From contig BPGB01000011.1 in the NCBI GenBank assembly GCA_026002815.1, positions 2,280 through 26,279 of the forward strand: a stretch of DNA of 24,000 nucleotides, in the 5' to 3' direction. Below the pieces are notes generated by a model. It saw only the letters and a list, made by a program, of their open reading frames with translations. It was not told the DNA's origin and made no database searches. The stretch's first letter is position 1; the number at the start of each line of letters is the position of its first letter. Below, one piece after another: positions 6,325-12,589 of this stretch. This DNA is from Candidatus Woesearchaeota archaeon (GTDB lineage: Archaea; Nanobdellota; Nanobdellia; Woesearchaeales; UBA9642). Made by a program: the position numbers and the translations under genes.

Positions 6325-8746
6325 TTACTACTCAACTGAGTGGTACAGGATACAAAGTAATTATAATCTCCTTAATAATATTATAAATCAGGAGGAATTT
6401 CAGAAATTATGTGACCCTTTGAAACTTGATATGGGTAAAGACTATGTGCAGGCATTTAACCAAATGCATAATAAAATTAATGTTCTTAAAGGAGAAGAAT
6501 CAAAATTACCCTGGTCTTTTAATGTTATAGCATATTCACCTGAAGCAGCAAATGAAATAAACAGAAGAAAAACAAAAGAAATAAAAAACTATATTTCCTT
6601 TCAAATTCAAAAAGAACTATCATTAGCTCAGGCAAGGATACAACAGCAGGTTATGTTGGAAACACAACAAGTTTCACAGGAAGAAGCAGAACAGTTCTTT
6701 AAACAGAGAGTACAAGAGCTTGAAGAACAAGAAAAAGAATTCCTGAATCCTGAAGAAATAATAAATAAATACAGAAAATTCAGACTTAACGAAGAAATAG
6801 CATTAAGTAAAATCTTAATTAACCAACGTGACAGATTGAAACTAAGGCATCTCAAAAATGAATCATATGAAGCAGCACTTGTTGCAGGAATTGAAGCTAT
6901 AAAAGTAGCACCAGTAAATGGTATAGAACAAGTAGAAGTTTTAAATCCACTTGGATTAGCTTATCATAAATCTCCCGAAATACAATTCATAGAAGATGGT
7001 GATTGGGTGGTATATAAACAGGAAAAAACTATTGCTGATGTTATAGATGAATATGGTGATAGATTACATCCGGATGACCTTAATGAATTGGAAACAAGAT
7101 TGTCAAGAGTTTATGGAACTGACGCAAAAATGTATTCCAAAGATGCTTATTCTCCATCACATTGGGAAAATTTATCTAAATATAACAGAACATTTGGATT
7201 TAATGATGTACCCCATACAGGACAATACGGACAATCTGTTGCAAATTATCATGATTATTTAACAGTTTATACTTGTTATTGGAGGTCACAGAGAAAAGTA
7301 TATTTTTTATCATGGGTAGATGATTATGGTAATGAACAAATGGACATAGTATCTGAAGATTTTATAATCCCTGAAAATCATACTGAAAGACGAGTCAAAG
7401 ATGAAGTAAACAATATTACAAAAAAAATAATTCAGTGGTTGGACCCTGAAACCCAAATTGTTTATTCTCTGGAAGAAAAATGGATACCACAGATTTGGGA
7501 AGGTACAAGAATTGAAGATCATATTTATGTTGATATACAACCAGTACCCTGGATTAATACTTCAATAGAAAGACCATATGATGTAAAACTACCTATATAT
7601 GGAGCACCATATTCAGCAAAAAATGCTCCAATAACATCTTTATTTGACAGAGGAGTTCCATGGCAGAAACTTTATCTTTTTGTGATGGCAAAATGGCTGA
7701 AATTAATACAACAGGATAGAGGAGTAGTTCATACCTTTAATACTTTAATGGTAGATGAACAATTAGGGATTGATGAAACGCTCAGATATATGTTTGATAT
7801 GGGGTTTATTCCTATTAATCCTATTGCAAATGCTGAAGCAGCACAGATTTTAGGAAACACACTTAAAATGGCTGAAACAATCAACCTATCTAATTCAAAT
7901 CAGCTTTCTCAATACACCCAGATACTTGCATTCATAGAACAACAAATAGGAATTTCAATGGGAGTACCACGTGAAAGAGAAGCAAGAACAAGTCCAAATA
8001 CTAATGTTACTGATAATCAACAAGATTTGATACAATCTTCCCATATTACCCAACCAATCCTGGCACTACATAATATTATATGGGAAAATGTACTTAATGC
8101 TTTACTTAATCTGACAAAAGAAAGAATTAAAAAAGGTGCTAAAACATGGAGATTTATTTTATCAGATGAAGAAATAGCTACTATAGAAATAAGTCCTGAA
8201 AATCTTGACAACTTTGATTTTGGAGTATATGTTAAACAAAATGAAAAAGCAAGAGAAGTATTAAAGCAAGCACAATTACATGCTCAGGCTTTAATACAAA
8301 ATGATAAATTAAATCTTTCAACTTTCATAGGAATGCTTGAAACTGAAAATTTAGGTGAATTTAAACAAATGGTCCGACAAATGGAAAATGAACTTTCTCA
8401 AAGAGAATTACAATTACAACAACAGCGATTGGAAGCTCAGGCTAAACAACAGGAGAGAGAAATTGAATGGAGAGAAGACCAGCAACAACATGAAATAGCT
8501 ATGGAAGAAATGAAAGGAAATATCCAGAAAGAAATAACTGTTTTAAAAGAACAATCCAAAAACCCTGAGCAAAAAGATGATACTCTTGAACTTAAAAAAC
8601 TTGAACAAAAAGAAAAAGAACTCAAAGAAAAAATTGAGATTGAGAGGAAAAAAATTTTACAGAAACAAAAAGAATCAGATGAAAATATTAAACTTGAAAA
8701 AGAAAAACTCAAACTAAATGAAAAATTAAAAAATAAAAAATCCTAA
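6224..8746 (+). CDS. Portal protein with long charged C-terminal coiled coil
   Basis: 840-aa ORF directly after terminase, with size and position typical of a portal. The last ~120 aa are an uninterrupted E/K/Q-rich helical tract. ATG 6224 is the only ATG before ~6430, which implies a 101-nt overlap with terL. No catalytic-type motif exists for portals, so the call is positional. Confidence 0.7.
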   Translation: MSTISQPKQKLSLNKKNKLWRKENVDFLCSQANDYYSTEWYRIQSNYNLLNNIINQEEFQKLCDPLKLDMGKDYVQAFNQMHNKINVLKGEESKLPWSFNVIAYSPEAANEINRRKTKEIKNYISFQIQKELSLAQARIQQQVMLETQQVSQEEAEQFFKQRVQELEEQEKEFLNPEEIINKYRKFRLNEEIALSKILINQRDRLKLRHLKNESYEAALVAGIEAIKVAPVNGIEQVEVLNPLGLAYHKSPEIQFIEDGDWVVYKQEKTIADVIDEYGDRLHPDDLNELETRLSRVYGTDAKMYSKDAYSPSHWENLSKYNRTFGFNDVPHTGQYGQSVANYHDYLTVYTCYWRSQRKVYFLSWVDDYGNEQMDIVSEDFIIPENHTERRVKDEVNNITKKIIQWLDPETQIVYSLEEKWIPQIWEGTRIEDHIYVDIQPVPWINTSIERPYDVKLPIYGAPYSAKNAPITSLFDRGVPWQKLYLFVMAKWLKLIQQDRGVVHTFNTLMVDEQLGIDETLRYMFDMGFIPINPIANAEAAQILGNTLKMAETINLSNSNQLSQYTQILAFIEQQIGISMGVPREREARTSPNTNVTDNQQDLIQSSHITQPILALHNIIWENVLNALLNLTKERIKKGAKTWRFILSDEEIATIEISPENLDNFDFGVYVKQNEKAREVLKQAQLHAQALIQNDKLNLSTFIGMLETENLGEFKQMVRQMENELSQRELQLQQQRLEAQAKQQEREIEWREDQQQHEIAMEEMKGNIQKEITVLKEQSKNPEQKDDTLELKKLEQKEKELKEKIEIERKKILQKQKESDENIKLEKEKLKLNEKLKNKKS

Positions 8747-8850
8747 CTAAACACCAAAAAGAAAATTTAGACACATAAATAAATAATCTAAAAAACTGGT
8801 TTTATCAAAAAAATTCTTATATTTATACCAGAAATAAACTAAATCAATTA

Positions 8851-9000
8851 ATGACAGACAGAATTGCAAAACCGTTTTTGAAGTGGGCAGGTGGTAAAAC
8901 TCAGCTTATAAACACTATTGAAAATGCTTTGCCCAAAGACATTTACAGTAACAAATTCACATACATTGAGCCCTTTGTTGGAAGTGGTGCAGTTTTATAA
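8851..9000 (+). pseudogene. dam: 5' fragment of a Dam-type (D12 class) N6-adenine DNA methyltransferase gene, truncated after motif I
   Basis: Translates as [59 protein letters not shown] and EPFVGSGAV (the FxGxG SAM-binding motif) are the hallmark N-terminal motifs of Dam-family enzymes. The reading frame ends at the IS left end, and no DPPY-type catalytic half follows anywhere downstream. Confidence 0.8.
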
Positions 9001-9014
9001 AACGGAGCGTAAAA

Positions 9015-9037
9015 CCCACAAATCTTTAGTTTGTGGG
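9015..9037 (+). repeat. IS200/IS605 left-end subterminal hairpin
   Basis: CCCACAAA-TCTTTAG-TTTGTGGG: a perfect 8-bp stem with a 7-nt loop, ~15 nt inside the dam/IS junction. It has the same loop and the same first four stem pairs as the hairpin at 10110-10132. Confidence 0.7.
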
Positions 9038-9047
9038 ATGTAAGCGA

Positions 9048-9134
9048 CTAGCCCTGATTGAGAATATACTCACGAATGGTATCAGGAGAAGCCTCACCAA
9101 TTGAGCAAACGAAATAACCATCTGAACGAAACTT
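9048..9134 (-). pseudogene. tnpA: 3' remnant of IS200-type Y1 transposase gene
   Basis: The minus strand reads (stop)KFRSDGYFVCSIGEASPDTIREYILNQG*. The GYFV.S.G....I..YI.NQ pattern is the conserved C-terminal end of IS200/IS605 TnpA. An in-frame TAA (9135-9137) cuts it off upstream, so only 28 codons remain. Confidence 0.65.
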
Positions 9135-9144
9135 TTACAAAAAC

Positions 9145-9175
9145 TTGAAATATGTGTGAATAATTAGTATCTTTG
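9145..9175 (+). promoter_or_regulatory. Bacteroidota-type promoter candidate for the endonuclease gene (TTG, 20-nt spacer, TAtcTTTG)
   Basis: TTG at 9145-9147 and TATCTTTG at 9168-9175 fit the -33 TTTG / -7 TAnnTTTG architecture. The ATG at 9180 falls where the transcription start would be, which suggests a leaderless mRNA. Confidence 0.4.
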
Positions 9176-9179
9176 CATT

Positions 9180-9887
9180 ATGAAAAATGAAGTTTACATA
9201 TACGGTTTAAAGTGTCCTGAAAAGGGTGTTATTAGGTATATCGGCAAAAGCAAAAACCCCAAAGCAAGATACCATACACATTTAAGTCATTCCAAAGCAG
9301 AAAGATATGATAACATTCATCTTTACAGGTGGATTGCTAAACTTTTAAGAAACGAGTTAAAACCTGAATTAATCATATTGGATAGTTGTAGTAACACAGA
9401 TTGGAAGGAGAAAGAGAAAGAATGGATTAATAAATATGGATTAGACAATTTGCTGAATATGAATGAAGGTGGGATTGAACCGCCAGATAATACAGGTTTT
9501 AGATGGTCAGAAGAACAAAAAGCAAATCATTCATCACATAAAAGAAAAGGTAAACCACAATGGACGAATATTCCGCATCCACTTTTAGGCAAAGAACATC
9601 CTGCTAAAGGTCAAAAACGTTCTAAAGAGTTTTGCGAATTAATGAAAAAACAAAGATTAGAAAACAATGGTATGAAAGGTGTAAAACTTTCTAAAGAACG
9701 TATAGAACAGATTAAAGAGGTTAATTCAAAGAGGGTGGCTCTACTTGATGATAACGGAAACATACAAAAAGAATATAATTCTCAATCAGAAGCGGCACAG
9801 GATTTAGGTTTACACCATTCGGCAATAGGGAGAGTTTGTAAAGGAGAATACAAACATACAAAAGGACATAAGTTTAAATGGATATGA
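9180..9887 (+). CDS. GIY-YIG homing endonuclease with NUMOD3-like repeats and a C-terminal NUMOD1/IENR1-type helix-turn-helix
   Basis: 235-aa intact ORF. GIY-YIG motifs are VYIYGL ... IRYIGKS ... KARYHTH ... EKEWI ... LLNMNEGG. The middle region has GKxHxxKGxKxS-type NUMOD3 repeats (LLGKEHPAKGQKRSKE, GMKGVKLSKERIEQIK). The C-terminus YNSQSEAAQDLGLHHSAIGRVCKGEYKHTKGHKFKW is a typical HEG DNA-binding HTH. Confidence 0.85.
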   Translation: MKNEVYIYGLKCPEKGVIRYIGKSKNPKARYHTHLSHSKAERYDNIHLYRWIAKLLRNELKPELIILDSCSNTDWKEKEKEWINKYGLDNLLNMNEGGIEPPDNTGFRWSEEQKANHSSHKRKGKPQWTNIPHPLLGKEHPAKGQKRSKEFCELMKKQRLENNGMKGVKLSKERIEQIKEVNSKRVALLDDNGNIQKEYNSQSEAAQDLGLHHSAIGRVCKGEYKHTKGHKFKWI

Positions 9888-10135
9888 ATAGCCCCAAAAC
9901 TTGTAATGTGTGTGGATGGATAAATCAAGATTTAAATCTTTCGGTTCGTGAATGGACTTGCAAAAATGGACATAAATTAGACCGTGATTTAAATGCAGCA
10001 AAGGTCATTCTGAAAGAAGGATTGAAAATAATATCGGGTGGGACGCTCGATAACACGGATGGAGATGGTGTAAGAAGTAGTAATACTCAACTATCTGCGA
10101 AGTCCGAAGCCCATTTGTCTTTAGCAAATGGGTAG
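9878..10135 (+). pseudogene. tnpB: 3' remnant of tnpB (zinc-ribbon plus last RuvC motif only)
   Basis: Reads ..SPKTCNVCGWINQDLNLSVREWTCKNGHKLDRDLNAAKVILKEG...SAKSEAH..*. The C..CG...L.LS.R.W.C......DRD.NAA pattern is the TnpB/OrfB zinc-ribbon and RuvC-III region. Stops lie immediately upstream in frame, the second Cys pair is incomplete (CKNGH), and about 300 N-terminal codons are missing. Confidence 0.8.
10110..10132 (+). repeat. IS200/IS605 right-end subterminal hairpin
   Basis: CCCATTTG-TCTTTAG-CAAATGGG: an 8-bp stem with a loop identical to the left-end hairpin. It overlaps the last codons of the tnpB remnant, as expected for an IS605-type right end. Confidence 0.7.
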
Positions 10136-10156
10136 TTCACTTAAACCTTAAAAACA

Positions 10157-12589
10157 GTGGGGGGTAAATTAAAATACACAAACAATGGTATAGAAAGAAT
10201 CAGTTCTACCAATAGAAAATTCTTTTATCCATATAAAACAATTCAAAATAATAAAGAAAGCCCTGTTAATTTTACTGGATATCTTAAAGGCTCTTCTACA
10301 GTTTCAAATCCATATAATTTAATTCCTTCACATACCATCACTACTACCAACATGGCAGGTCCTATTCTTGCTAATGGACAACTTTTATTACCAAATACCG
10401 GAGATTATTATTTTGAAAAAATTCCTGTAGTAGAAAAAAGACTATTTCAAAAAGGAGGAACAATAGATACACTCTTTGTATCTAATCCCAAGGACTCAAG
10501 GTTAAAGGCTTATAAAGATAGTTTAATGTTGTATAATGCTAGTAAAGAATATGAAGGTAAATTACCTGTAATATCAGTTGAAGCTGTCAGATATATTATG
10601 AGACCCGGACAACCAAACTCTGAATATTATTATAATAAAGTTGCAACTTTACCAAATAATGATCCTATTGGTTATTATGTAGAAAAACCAACTCCATATA
10701 TTACAAATTATTATCCAAAACATGCAAAACCAAAACAACCAGTAGTTTATAAACCTAACCATTTAGAACTTCAAAAACTTTCCACACTTCCATCCAATCC
10801 AATTTTTAACCCCCCTAACCCTCAACCAAAATCCATAATACCCCCAAGAACTAGTATAAACTGGGAAACTGAAAAGAGCAATAGAAAATACTATACAAAA
10901 AGTTTTGACCCAAAATCTGAAATTGAAAAATTATGGAATCCTGTTATTAAAAGAACCAATGAATTAAGATTAAAACATCCCCCTGCTATTACAAAAAAAT
11001 GTGATTCAAGATATAAATATAATGATTGTCCGGTATTTAAAGAAGAAAGAATAAAAAAATTTAAAAACAAATATCAAAGTGGTGGTTATCAGTGGTCAAC
11101 AGAAGACCCAGAGAATTATCGGCAACCATTAATTATTCCAGATGCAGTTGTGATTCCAACTGATGTATTAAAACCTTCTATAAAGGACTATTCAATAACA
11201 CAGGACTATCCAATAACACATAATGAATATCCTCCTATACAACATCCTGGATATATTAAGCAATTACCAAAAGGAAGTCTTCTTAAAAAATTTCTGTTTG
11301 CTCCTCTTGCAACATCATTAGGAGTAAAAGAAGGAAATATTCCAGATATGTTTCTAAGTTTGCCTGCTCATACTGGAGCTGCAGCAATAGAAACAGCAAA
11401 AAATATATCACATCCAATAAGAACTATAAAAACTCTGGGAAAAGCAGGAATAAATTTTATAACAGACTTATCTGGGGAACAAAATCCTTATCCTGGAAGT
11501 ACTTCTAAAGCTCTTGATATTATACTTGATGCATTAGGTACAGTACCATTATCACCAGGACGTCAACTGACAAGTAAATTAATAGAATTACCAAAAAATG
11601 AATTACGTGAACTTGCTTACACAATTGGGACACAATCAGAACATCCATATCGATCTACAGAACAGATAATAAGAGGTATAAAAGATTATAAAGATAACAT
11701 CAAACGAAGATTACACAATGAACCACCAGAATATTATGATCTTAATTACACAGGTGATTACTCAGGACGTGTGGATCTTTTAAAAGCATATTTAAAACAA
11801 GACTATACAGGTCTTACACCATCAAATCTCCCACTTTCTACATATCAAGAACTAATTCAGGGGAAAACTCCATACATGAAATTTAAATTACCATTATATG
11901 ATGATAGCCCAGCAAATTTATTAGAACTTGAAATAAGGACTCCATCAAAAGACCTTAATATTTTTCAACAGCTTAAAACTATAGAAGAAGAAATTAAAAA
12001 AAAGGGAAGATTTGAAGCAGGTGTGGATGTGGGTCTACTTCCACCAGAAACTAAAGCTTATTTAAGTAACTATCGTGCACCAACATCATTTAACATTGCA
12101 GGACATGAAATATTAATAATACCAGGGGGAAAATTAGGACATAAATTAATATTTACTGACCACTGGGGGTTCATAAATGAAGTTAAAAGACCTGGATTTC
12201 CAAAAGGAAATTATATAAGGAAATGGAGGGTGAACAGTAATGATATAGGTAAACCAATTGTACCTGCCTTTCTGCAGCCAAAATTAATGGGAATGATAGG
12301 AAAACCATTTATACTTCAAAATGAGATAGATTTGGCACTTCCAAAAACTGTAGCTGGTAAAAAAAGACTGGCTCAAGATATTGGTGGATTATCTATGTTA
12401 AGAAGAATAGACAAAAGAATATATGACTCGAAAAAAAGTATGGTGCCAGAAAAGGTATTAGGAGAAACCGAAATGGATGTATTAAATTTAATGGACCAAT
12501 TAAGAGACAAAATTAGTAAAACACACTATAATTTCAAACATGGTGGTAAATATACTCGAATATCACCAAAGAAAAATAAGAAAATATAA
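10157..12589 (+). CDS. Large virion-associated protein of unknown function (Pro-rich segment; recurring aromatic-x-x-GG motif); possible internal/ejected protein
   Basis: 810-aa ORF. The frame opens at 10145, right at the IS right end. Its only early start is GTG 10157, and the first ATG is ~62 codons further in. The Pro-rich tract is KPKQPVVYKPN...NPIFNPPNPQPKSIIPP. The motifs FQKGG, YQSGG and FKHGG recur. No enzymatic motif recognised. Confidence 0.55.
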   Translation: MGGKLKYTNNGIERISSTNRKFFYPYKTIQNNKESPVNFTGYLKGSSTVSNPYNLIPSHTITTTNMAGPILANGQLLLPNTGDYYFEKIPVVEKRLFQKGGTIDTLFVSNPKDSRLKAYKDSLMLYNASKEYEGKLPVISVEAVRYIMRPGQPNSEYYYNKVATLPNNDPIGYYVEKPTPYITNYYPKHAKPKQPVVYKPNHLELQKLSTLPSNPIFNPPNPQPKSIIPPRTSINWETEKSNRKYYTKSFDPKSEIEKLWNPVIKRTNELRLKHPPAITKKCDSRYKYNDCPVFKEERIKKFKNKYQSGGYQWSTEDPENYRQPLIIPDAVVIPTDVLKPSIKDYSITQDYPITHNEYPPIQHPGYIKQLPKGSLLKKFLFAPLATSLGVKEGNIPDMFLSLPAHTGAAAIETAKNISHPIRTIKTLGKAGINFITDLSGEQNPYPGSTSKALDIILDALGTVPLSPGRQLTSKLIELPKNELRELAYTIGTQSEHPYRSTEQIIRGIKDYKDNIKRRLHNEPPEYYDLNYTGDYSGRVDLLKAYLKQDYTGLTPSNLPLSTYQELIQGKTPYMKFKLPLYDDSPANLLELEIRTPSKDLNIFQQLKTIEEEIKKKGRFEAGVDVGLLPPETKAYLSNYRAPTSFNIAGHEILIIPGGKLGHKLIFTDHWGFINEVKRPGFPKGNYIRKWRVNSNDIGKPIVPAFLQPKLMGMIGKPFILQNEIDLALPKTVAGKKRLAQDIGGLSMLRRIDKRIYDSKKSMVPEKVLGETEMDVLNLMDQLRDKISKTHYNFKHGGKYTRISPKKNKKI

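Follow-up and report, generated by a model that had tools for sequence, protein, structure and literature searches.

Two hairpins on a phage-like contig as the probable ends of a non-autonomous IS200/IS605-family element

Meers et al (2023; PMC10055086) established by experiment that excision requires the left end (LE), the right end (RE), the cognate TAM and a matching guide. ISGst2 of Geobacillus stearothermophilus, a member of the IS200/IS605 family, uses the TAM TTTAT and a TEM that departs from it at positions 3 and 5 (PMC10055086). The cleavage site of IS608, from Helicobacter pylori, pairs with the tetranucleotide that lies 5' of the hairpin foot, and this principle of pairing between guide and cleavage site was confirmed by Meers et al (PMC10055086). 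IS609 of Escherichia coli K-12 (NC_000913.3, 1503161-1504908) also has the target TTTAT, and its tnpA and tnpB genes are divergent. The window considered here, which is the whole 24,000-nt stretch of DNA that was analysed, belongs to a phage-like contig encoding a terminase, a portal protein and a major head protein. We consider it highly likely that two hairpins in this window are the LE and RE subterminal palindromes of a 1,142-bp non-autonomous IS200/IS605 derivative belonging to the TTTAT-targeting, ISGst2/IS609-like group.

Hairpins, boundaries and guides of the element

The left hairpin, CCCACAAATCTTTAGTTTGTGGG (9015-9037, + strand), consists of an 8-bp stem with arms CCCACAAA and TTTGTGGG that closes the heptaloop TCTTTAG. 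The right hairpin, CCCATTTGTCTTTAGCAAATGGG (10110-10132, + strand), with arms CCCATTTG and CAAATGGG, has the same loop TCTTTAG and the outer stem of the left end, its inner 4 bp being strand-swapped. The preliminary description had reported this arrangement of a common loop and common outer pairs with differing inner pairs in fully paired stems, and it is borne out here; the interval given there, 9001-9047, covers the left end only, the right end being situated at 10106-10140. When folded as single-stranded DNA, both sequences adopt the predicted stem-loop, at -8.4 kcal/mol (z = -2.8) for the left hairpin and -9.3 kcal/mol (z = -3.4) for the right one. The pattern CCCANNNNTCTTTAGNNNNTGGG, searched with at most one mismatch, gives 2 matches in the window against 0.01 expected from 100 shuffles, which rules out a chance origin of the pair, and the whole 1.7-Mb, 26-contig assembly contains no match beyond these two. 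The loop is asymmetric and both hairpins lie on the + strand, a same-strand orientation that recurs in all 47 paired relatives.

The limits of the element are given by an intact relative on the viral contig L094 (2628-4376), a 1,749-bp element in which divergent tnpA and tnpB genes lie between identical hairpins. Its TnpA matches PF01797 over positions 3-121 of 121 (E = 5.6e-32) and its TnpB is complete (PF12323, PF01385, PF07282). Positions 8999-9125 of the window (127 bp) are 100% identical to positions 1-127 of this element, and positions 9895-10140 (246 bp) are 100% identical to its positions 1504-1749. Since its arms equal the ends of the intact element, the window element can be delimited at 8999-10140 (+ strand), boundaries at which the flanks of the relatives diverge, and its 769-bp interior stands in place of 1,376 bp of the IS. 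The earlier attribution of the hairpins to IS200/IS605 ends is corroborated by the presence, between the same hairpins, of a full Y1 TnpA and a TnpB. The left boundary had likewise been placed correctly, at GCAGTTTTAT/AA: the TAM or target motif TTTAT occupies 8994-8998 (+ strand), directly 5' of the element, which begins at 8999, and 47 related elements stop resembling each other at this point. On the right, related copies share a sequence finishing in TGGGTAGTTCAC and diverge immediately after it; the TEM, or right cleavage motif, TTCAC lies at 10136-10140 (+ strand), and the element ends after C10140.

What is left of the two IS genes agrees with the earlier statement that the element is non-autonomous. 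The tnpA remnant (9048-9131, minus strand) comprises the last 27 codons and the stop codon (9048-9050) of a Y1 HUH transposase; its translation, which ends in DGYFVCSIGEASPDTIREYILNQG before the stop, is 96% identical to residues 111-137 of the L094 TnpA (tblastn). It was recognised by translation and tblastn, the 38-residue tnpA piece giving no Pfam match. The tnpB remnant (9890-10135, + strand), within the ORF 9878-10135 and with its stop at 10133-10135, retains the C-terminal ~81 codons, that is, the zinc finger and the last RuvC motif (RuvC-III) forming the tail of TnpB (PF07282, E = 2.3e-9); it is 98.8% identical to residues 324-404 of the L094 TnpB (tblastn).

The family to which these ends belong is widespread. 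The right-end signature CCCANNNNTCTTTAGNNNNTGGGTAGTTCAC was retrieved from more than 120 viral contigs in one scan and from more than 119 bacterial contigs in a genome scan, with many bacterial copies in Sphingobacterium, Chitinophagaceae, Prevotella and other Bacteroidales, as well as in Sulfurovum and a Helicobacter; the hairpin clade is thus found mainly in phage contigs, Bacteroidota and Campylobacterota. The 47 two-ended elements share a left frame, in which flank and TTTAT are followed by ~16 nt ending in AAAA, the hairpin and ATG(T/A)A, and a right frame made of GAAG, the hairpin and TAGTTCAC before the flank; outside this frame their flanks are unrelated. The spacing from hairpin to hairpin falls into classes of 117-554 bp (gene-less), ~1.2-1.4 kb, ~1.7 kb and 2.0-2.3 kb, the gene-less elements with the same ends measuring 164-415 bp. 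L026 and L111 carry near-identical 234-bp gene-less elements at separate sites, and L006 and L050 share an identical 1,308-bp element but not its flanks. In relatives that have a longer hairpin with a different loop, the frames GAAG...TAGTTCAC and ...TAAAA...ATGTAAGCGAC are kept, and the two hairpins of one element are of the same type, short or long (L180 and L183 have both ends on the contig).

Forms with a single hairpin were also observed in viral contigs (L025, L044, L077 and L099; L008, L055 and L124). In some of these hybrids the left-end leader (GGAGCGTAAAA) and the hairpin run into the right-end tail TAGTTCAC, as would result from recombination between LE and RE via the shared hairpin, and others are perfect long palindromes of the form GTGAACTA-hairpin-TAGTTCAC.

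The T-rich motif that had been put forward as target and TAM is confirmed in the relatives, TTAT/TTTAT being located 15-18 nt ahead of the hairpin in essentially all of the 101 left-end contexts with the guide AAAA. In the window, this guide forms the 5' foot of the left hairpin (9011-9014, + strand). Guide and target covary across subfamilies: AAAT is accompanied by TTAA in 7/7 left-end contexts, AAAG by TTAC in 5/5 and AAAC by TTAG in 2/2, while three contexts combine GAAA with TTCAT. Changes at the fourth guide base are matched at the final position of the target in the four Watson-Crick combinations, which is the IS608 guide rule, and the AAAG/TTAC subfamily presumably reproduces the pair of IS608 itself. 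At the right end, the guide GAAG (10106-10109, + strand; 5' foot of the hairpin) accompanies TCAC and is conserved in relatives: among 56 aligned matches to the right-end tail, AAG is found in at least 90% and the first G in at least 70%, the exceptions being ends without a link to tnpB, and the 25 tnpB-linked ends have GAAG without exception. The combination of TTTAT and TTCAC is common to the window and all paired relatives, and the differences between the two motifs, at positions 3 and 5, conform to the description of ISGst2. The 5 nt that follow the right end of the window element are TTAAA, which is not a repeat of TTTAT.

By analogy with IS608 and ISGst2, we propose that the top (+) strand would become single-stranded and that a dimer of the Y1 HUH transposase TnpA would bind both hairpins, each of which would offer the enzyme an identical loop and identical outer CCCA/TGGG pairs. 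The foot guides, AAAA on the left and GAAG on the right, would pair with TTTAT and TTCAC, and this pairing would fix the two cuts, one directly 3' of T8998 and one directly 3' of C10140. The excised element would be a single-stranded circle, which would integrate 3' of a further TTTAT. For the inner four stem pairs, pairing would be the sole requirement, and the RE hairpin may have a second role as the last stem of an omega-RNA-like scaffold encoded in the 3' end of tnpB. Because tnpA and most of tnpB have been replaced by a GIY-YIG cassette, movement would take place only with TnpA provided in trans.

The endonuclease cassette and present mobility

The replacement cassette (9126-9894, + strand) is composed of a promoter-like leader and an intact gene of 235 codons (9180-9887, + strand) for a GIY-YIG and NUMOD-like homing endonuclease (PF01541, PF22083). 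The leader (9126-9179; AACTTTTACAAAAACTTG...TAGTATCTTTGCATT-ATG) resembles the tnpA-tnpB intergenic or promoter region of L094, and from this resemblance the endonuclease ORF seems to have taken over the start of tnpB. A microhomology, ACGA/ACGGA, marks the left breakpoint of the cassette at 9125/9126. In nearly all contigs examined, the endonuclease homologues (37-91% identical) lie within remnants of IS605 elements, and the tnpB remnant beside them always begins at about residue 311-326. The tnpA gene is variably kept in these relatives, every examined copy being truncated or devoid of a start codon; L180, considered as an autonomous element combining tnpA and the endonuclease, was rejected on the latter ground. 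The closest relatives of the endonuclease (75-91% identical) reside in IS copies with the long hairpin, and the arms of the window element are those of the intact short-hairpin IS, a distribution which suggests that the cassette has moved between IS lineages. The 100% identity of the arms to the intact IS, together with the residence of the endonuclease kin in long-hairpin IS, would fit a recent invasion of an intact element.

One relative of the cassette has a distinctive structure. In the Logan contig L405 (1-1178), which encodes a 91%-identical endonuclease, tnpB C-terminal sequence is present on both sides of the cassette: residues up to ~365 upstream (85% identity to L094) and from ~residue 322 downstream (97% identity to L094). 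Its right hairpin is of the long type, though the adjoining 226 bp are 97% L094-like. This partial duplication of tnpB looks like the footprint of an invasion into a full tnpB.

It can be hypothesised, tentatively and as a reading that we hold to be rather unlikely as a whole, that the window element is a functional three-way chimera, which joins ends competent for TnpA with an intact omega-RNA module and a homing endonuclease of the GIY-YIG type. The endonuclease lineage would parasitise IS605 elements by cutting intact tnpB, convert them to endonuclease-bearing copies, cross between IS lineages with different hairpins and still ride on TnpA in trans.

The context of the element does not correspond to a simple insertion into an intact gene. 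The left flank (8851-9000, + strand) contains 49 codons from the N-terminal end of a DNA adenine methyltransferase of the D12 class (Dam), with a match to PF02086 at E = 9.4e-10 that covers profile positions 1-34 of 253. This piece is 61% identical to the Dam N-termini of Lak phages, and its stop codon TAA (8998-9000) straddles the junction between flank and element. When the right flank is joined to dam, the reading is F K P followed by a stop, so that the frame continues for ~3 codons at most; it is from this lack of continuation that the present context is judged not to be a simple insertion. An orphan gene of 810 aa (ORF 10157-12589) opens directly at the right end of the element (10141-10160), with a GTG as the only start nearby, and the loss of the remainder of dam, however it came about, may have affected the 5' end of this gene. 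No relatives of this neighbour were found in metagenome contigs or phage records, and those of the portal protein are only ~24% identical.

From the sequence of the arms we infer that the ends are still competent for mobilisation by TnpA in trans; whether the element is mobilisable at the present day is, in our judgement, evenly balanced. Mobility is favoured by the zero divergence of both arms from the intact copy, 127 + 246 bp without a difference, which indicates that no decay has yet occurred, and by natural gene-less mini-elements that have much shorter arms and are nevertheless present at several sites. The alternative that survives best accepts the ends as correct and regards the element as a fixed fossil, which no cognate TnpA reaches and whose flanks stem from a later rearrangement; we see this as possible, if somewhat doubtful. 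It is consistent with the arrest of dam at the right end, no other Dam piece being found in the assembly, and with the state of tnpA in the endonuclease-bearing relatives. The preliminary description had advised looking for empty sites and for further copies, and neither search gave what was hoped for: no empty site was found, the joined-flank pattern being absent from viral contigs and the 810-aa neighbour having led to none in metagenome contigs or phage records, and the genome holds no second copy of the hairpins, so that support comes instead from other phages and from bacteria. The fossil interpretation also draws on the assembly itself, in which no Y1 transposase (Y1_Tnp) was detected, and on the hairpin family being found in 0/60 related genomes of the bin, only some of these relatives carrying TnpA genes, which are unrelated ones. 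However, the bin is 82% complete, and the absence of the family from the 60 relatives implies that the phage contig is probably not from the lineage of the bin, which is probably not its true host; the family is, by contrast, common in Bacteroidota and phages.

Three further observations concern related sequences in the assembly and in an independent one. A 70-nt relic of the same IS family (G000:C16:3898-3967) consists of TTTAT, ATAAAGGAGCGTAAAA, a degenerate hairpin and GGGTAGTTCAC; it is intergenic, beside a RuvC-like gene, folds poorly (-3.3 kcal/mol) and is the only other family member in the bin. On another contig, phage-like surroundings contain an intact TnpB of 391 aa that belongs to a different lineage (G000:C10:52510-52710; L003:1390-2565, minus strand); its ends differ, and no hairpins of the window's family are nearby. 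The Logan contig L407, in which the same phage was assembled independently, breaks within the left arm, at ~9058 of the window, as would be expected if other copies of the IS were present in that sample.

Selection on pairing and the omega-RNA-like scaffold

The claim that the stems are under selection for structure is upheld by the relatives, in which the scans left the inner 4+4 stem positions free, so that pairing there is unbiased. Among right ends, 184 of 220 unique contexts are perfectly paired and 31 have one mismatch, with 25 different inner stems; among left ends, perfect pairing is seen in 79 of 102 unique contexts and one mismatch in 15, with 18 inner stems. The pairing of four positions by chance amounts to 0.4%. 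In an ungapped alignment of 68 left ends, 95.7% of the cells of the left hairpin are paired, and each inner pair has undergone ~30 double-sided changes. The covariation score of the left end reaches 0.575 versus 0.158 in shuffles, none of the 500 attaining the observed value, and controls with slid partners give 0.07-0.13. These results show that, within the clade, the loop and the outer stem are fixed and the inner stem is selected for pairing only; the inner four pairs differ between the two ends and among relatives because they need only pair.

A second, outer helix encloses the left end, in which GGAGC (9004-9008, + strand) pairs with GCGAC (9044-9048, + strand) around an internal loop GTAAAA/ATGTAA. 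It contains tandem G.A/A.G in the subfamily of the window, and among the 68 left ends it is 75.5% paired, with double-sided changes at all 5 pairs.

The inner stems of LE and RE of one element were identical in 0/50 pairs from viral and bacterial loci. The repertoires are mostly CAAA, CAGG, TCGG and TAGG for LE, and mostly TTTG, TGAG, TTGG and CGAA for RE. The idea that selection keeps the two inner stems different was dropped, as ~1/50 identical pairs would be expected from the stem frequencies and the deficit is not significant.

The right end has a further structural feature. RNAalifold applied to the 25 tnpB-linked right ends predicts 23 pairs, 12 of them with compensatory changes, in an omega-RNA-like structured 3' region (10036-10140, + strand; start approximate) formed by a local stem at ~10038-10053, a long-range stem and, last of all ahead of the boundary, the RE hairpin. 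A search of Rfam over 8500-10600 returned no relevant family, the one weak snoRNA match being attributable to chance. The RE hairpin is probably both a TnpA site in DNA and a stem of the omega-RNA, and its covariation could come from the RNA role alone; the covariation of LE is free of that confound. As the LE hairpin lies outside the omega-RNA, it offers clean evidence for a constraint at the DNA level.

This distinction bears on a second alternative, according to which the right hairpin is kept only as an omega-RNA stem, its likeness to the left one is incidental and recognition by TnpA is not the constraint. We judge this to be very improbable. It would agree with the terminal position of the RE hairpin in the covarying scaffold and with a tnpB-only element of the Parabacteroides phage PF672P2, where the RE hairpin is kept (7/8 pairs) and no matching LE hairpin exists, but it leaves the LE hairpin out of account, which, outside any omega-RNA, matches the right one in loop and outer stem and covaries just as strongly. 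Moreover, short and long hairpins are never mixed within one element, both hairpins are kept in gene-less mini-elements, and the DNA and RNA roles are compatible rather than exclusive. The last alternative, that the hairpins are intrinsic terminators of tnpA (minus strand) and of tnpB or the endonuclease gene (plus strand), can be set aside almost entirely, for although each hairpin is located at or just past a coding end (the tnpA and tnpB stops), no terminator is predicted on either strand in 8700-10400, no T-run follows either stem, the gene-less mini-elements retain both hairpins, and the fixed spacing to TTTAT and TTCAC as well as the covariation of guide and target would be left unexplained.

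Comparison with known systems

The reading of the two hairpins as LE and RE of a non-autonomous IS200/IS605 derivative is in agreement with the traits of the family, namely the derivation from a Y1 TnpA element, subterminal palindromes on the same strand without terminal inverted repeats, insertion 3' of a TAM and the guide rule; tnpB and a covarying scaffold upstream of RE are traits of the IS605 group. The hairpins are textbook IS200/IS605 ends, the mechanism is ordinary and the kind of element is well known. The interest of the locus lies in the natural data set that it opens, with more than 300 related ends in phages and bacteria. The rule linking guide and target, which is experimental for IS608 and ISGst2, holds in nature in all four Watson-Crick combinations, and targets, and with them the TAMs of TnpB, are predictable from the left-end sequence alone. 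Phages carry this IS clade in abundance, and its ends stay intact on both sides of foreign cargo.

The designation of the element as PATE-like, made in the preliminary description, is appropriate in one respect and not in the other: the element is non-autonomous with both ends and with TnpA in trans, but it is not short, gene-less and multicopy, since it measures 1,142 bp, contains a GIY-YIG gene and is represented by one copy and the 70-nt relic. True gene-less relatives comparable to PATEs do exist in the family of the window; the window element differs from PATEs in its length of 1.1 kb, in being single-copy in the assembly and in carrying a passenger gene and an omega-RNA-like module.

With IS609, the similarity extends to the layout of the left end, which as in the window comprises an outer helix, GTAAAA, the hairpin, AT(A/G)TAA and the other arm of the outer helix, this helix being GCGCC...GGCGC in IS609. 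The TnpA and TnpB of IS609 are 36% and 33% identical to those of L094, respectively, and the hairpin sequences differ; the right end of IS609 finishes in GTCAA and that of the window element in TTCAC. No match to the element was found in E. coli at the DNA level. IS608 follows the same guide rule, whereas the window element uses AAAA/TTAT and GAAG/TCAC. A further counterpart is ISGst2 (Meers et al, 2023), to which the element is likened by its published description. The window copy departs from ISGst2 in the loss of tnpA and most of tnpB and in the presence of a GIY-YIG gene; in addition to the TAM and the TEM, the two systems have in common subterminal palindromes on the top strand, guides at the hairpin feet, tnpA together with tnpB, an omega-RNA overlapping RE and PATE-like gene-less derivatives.
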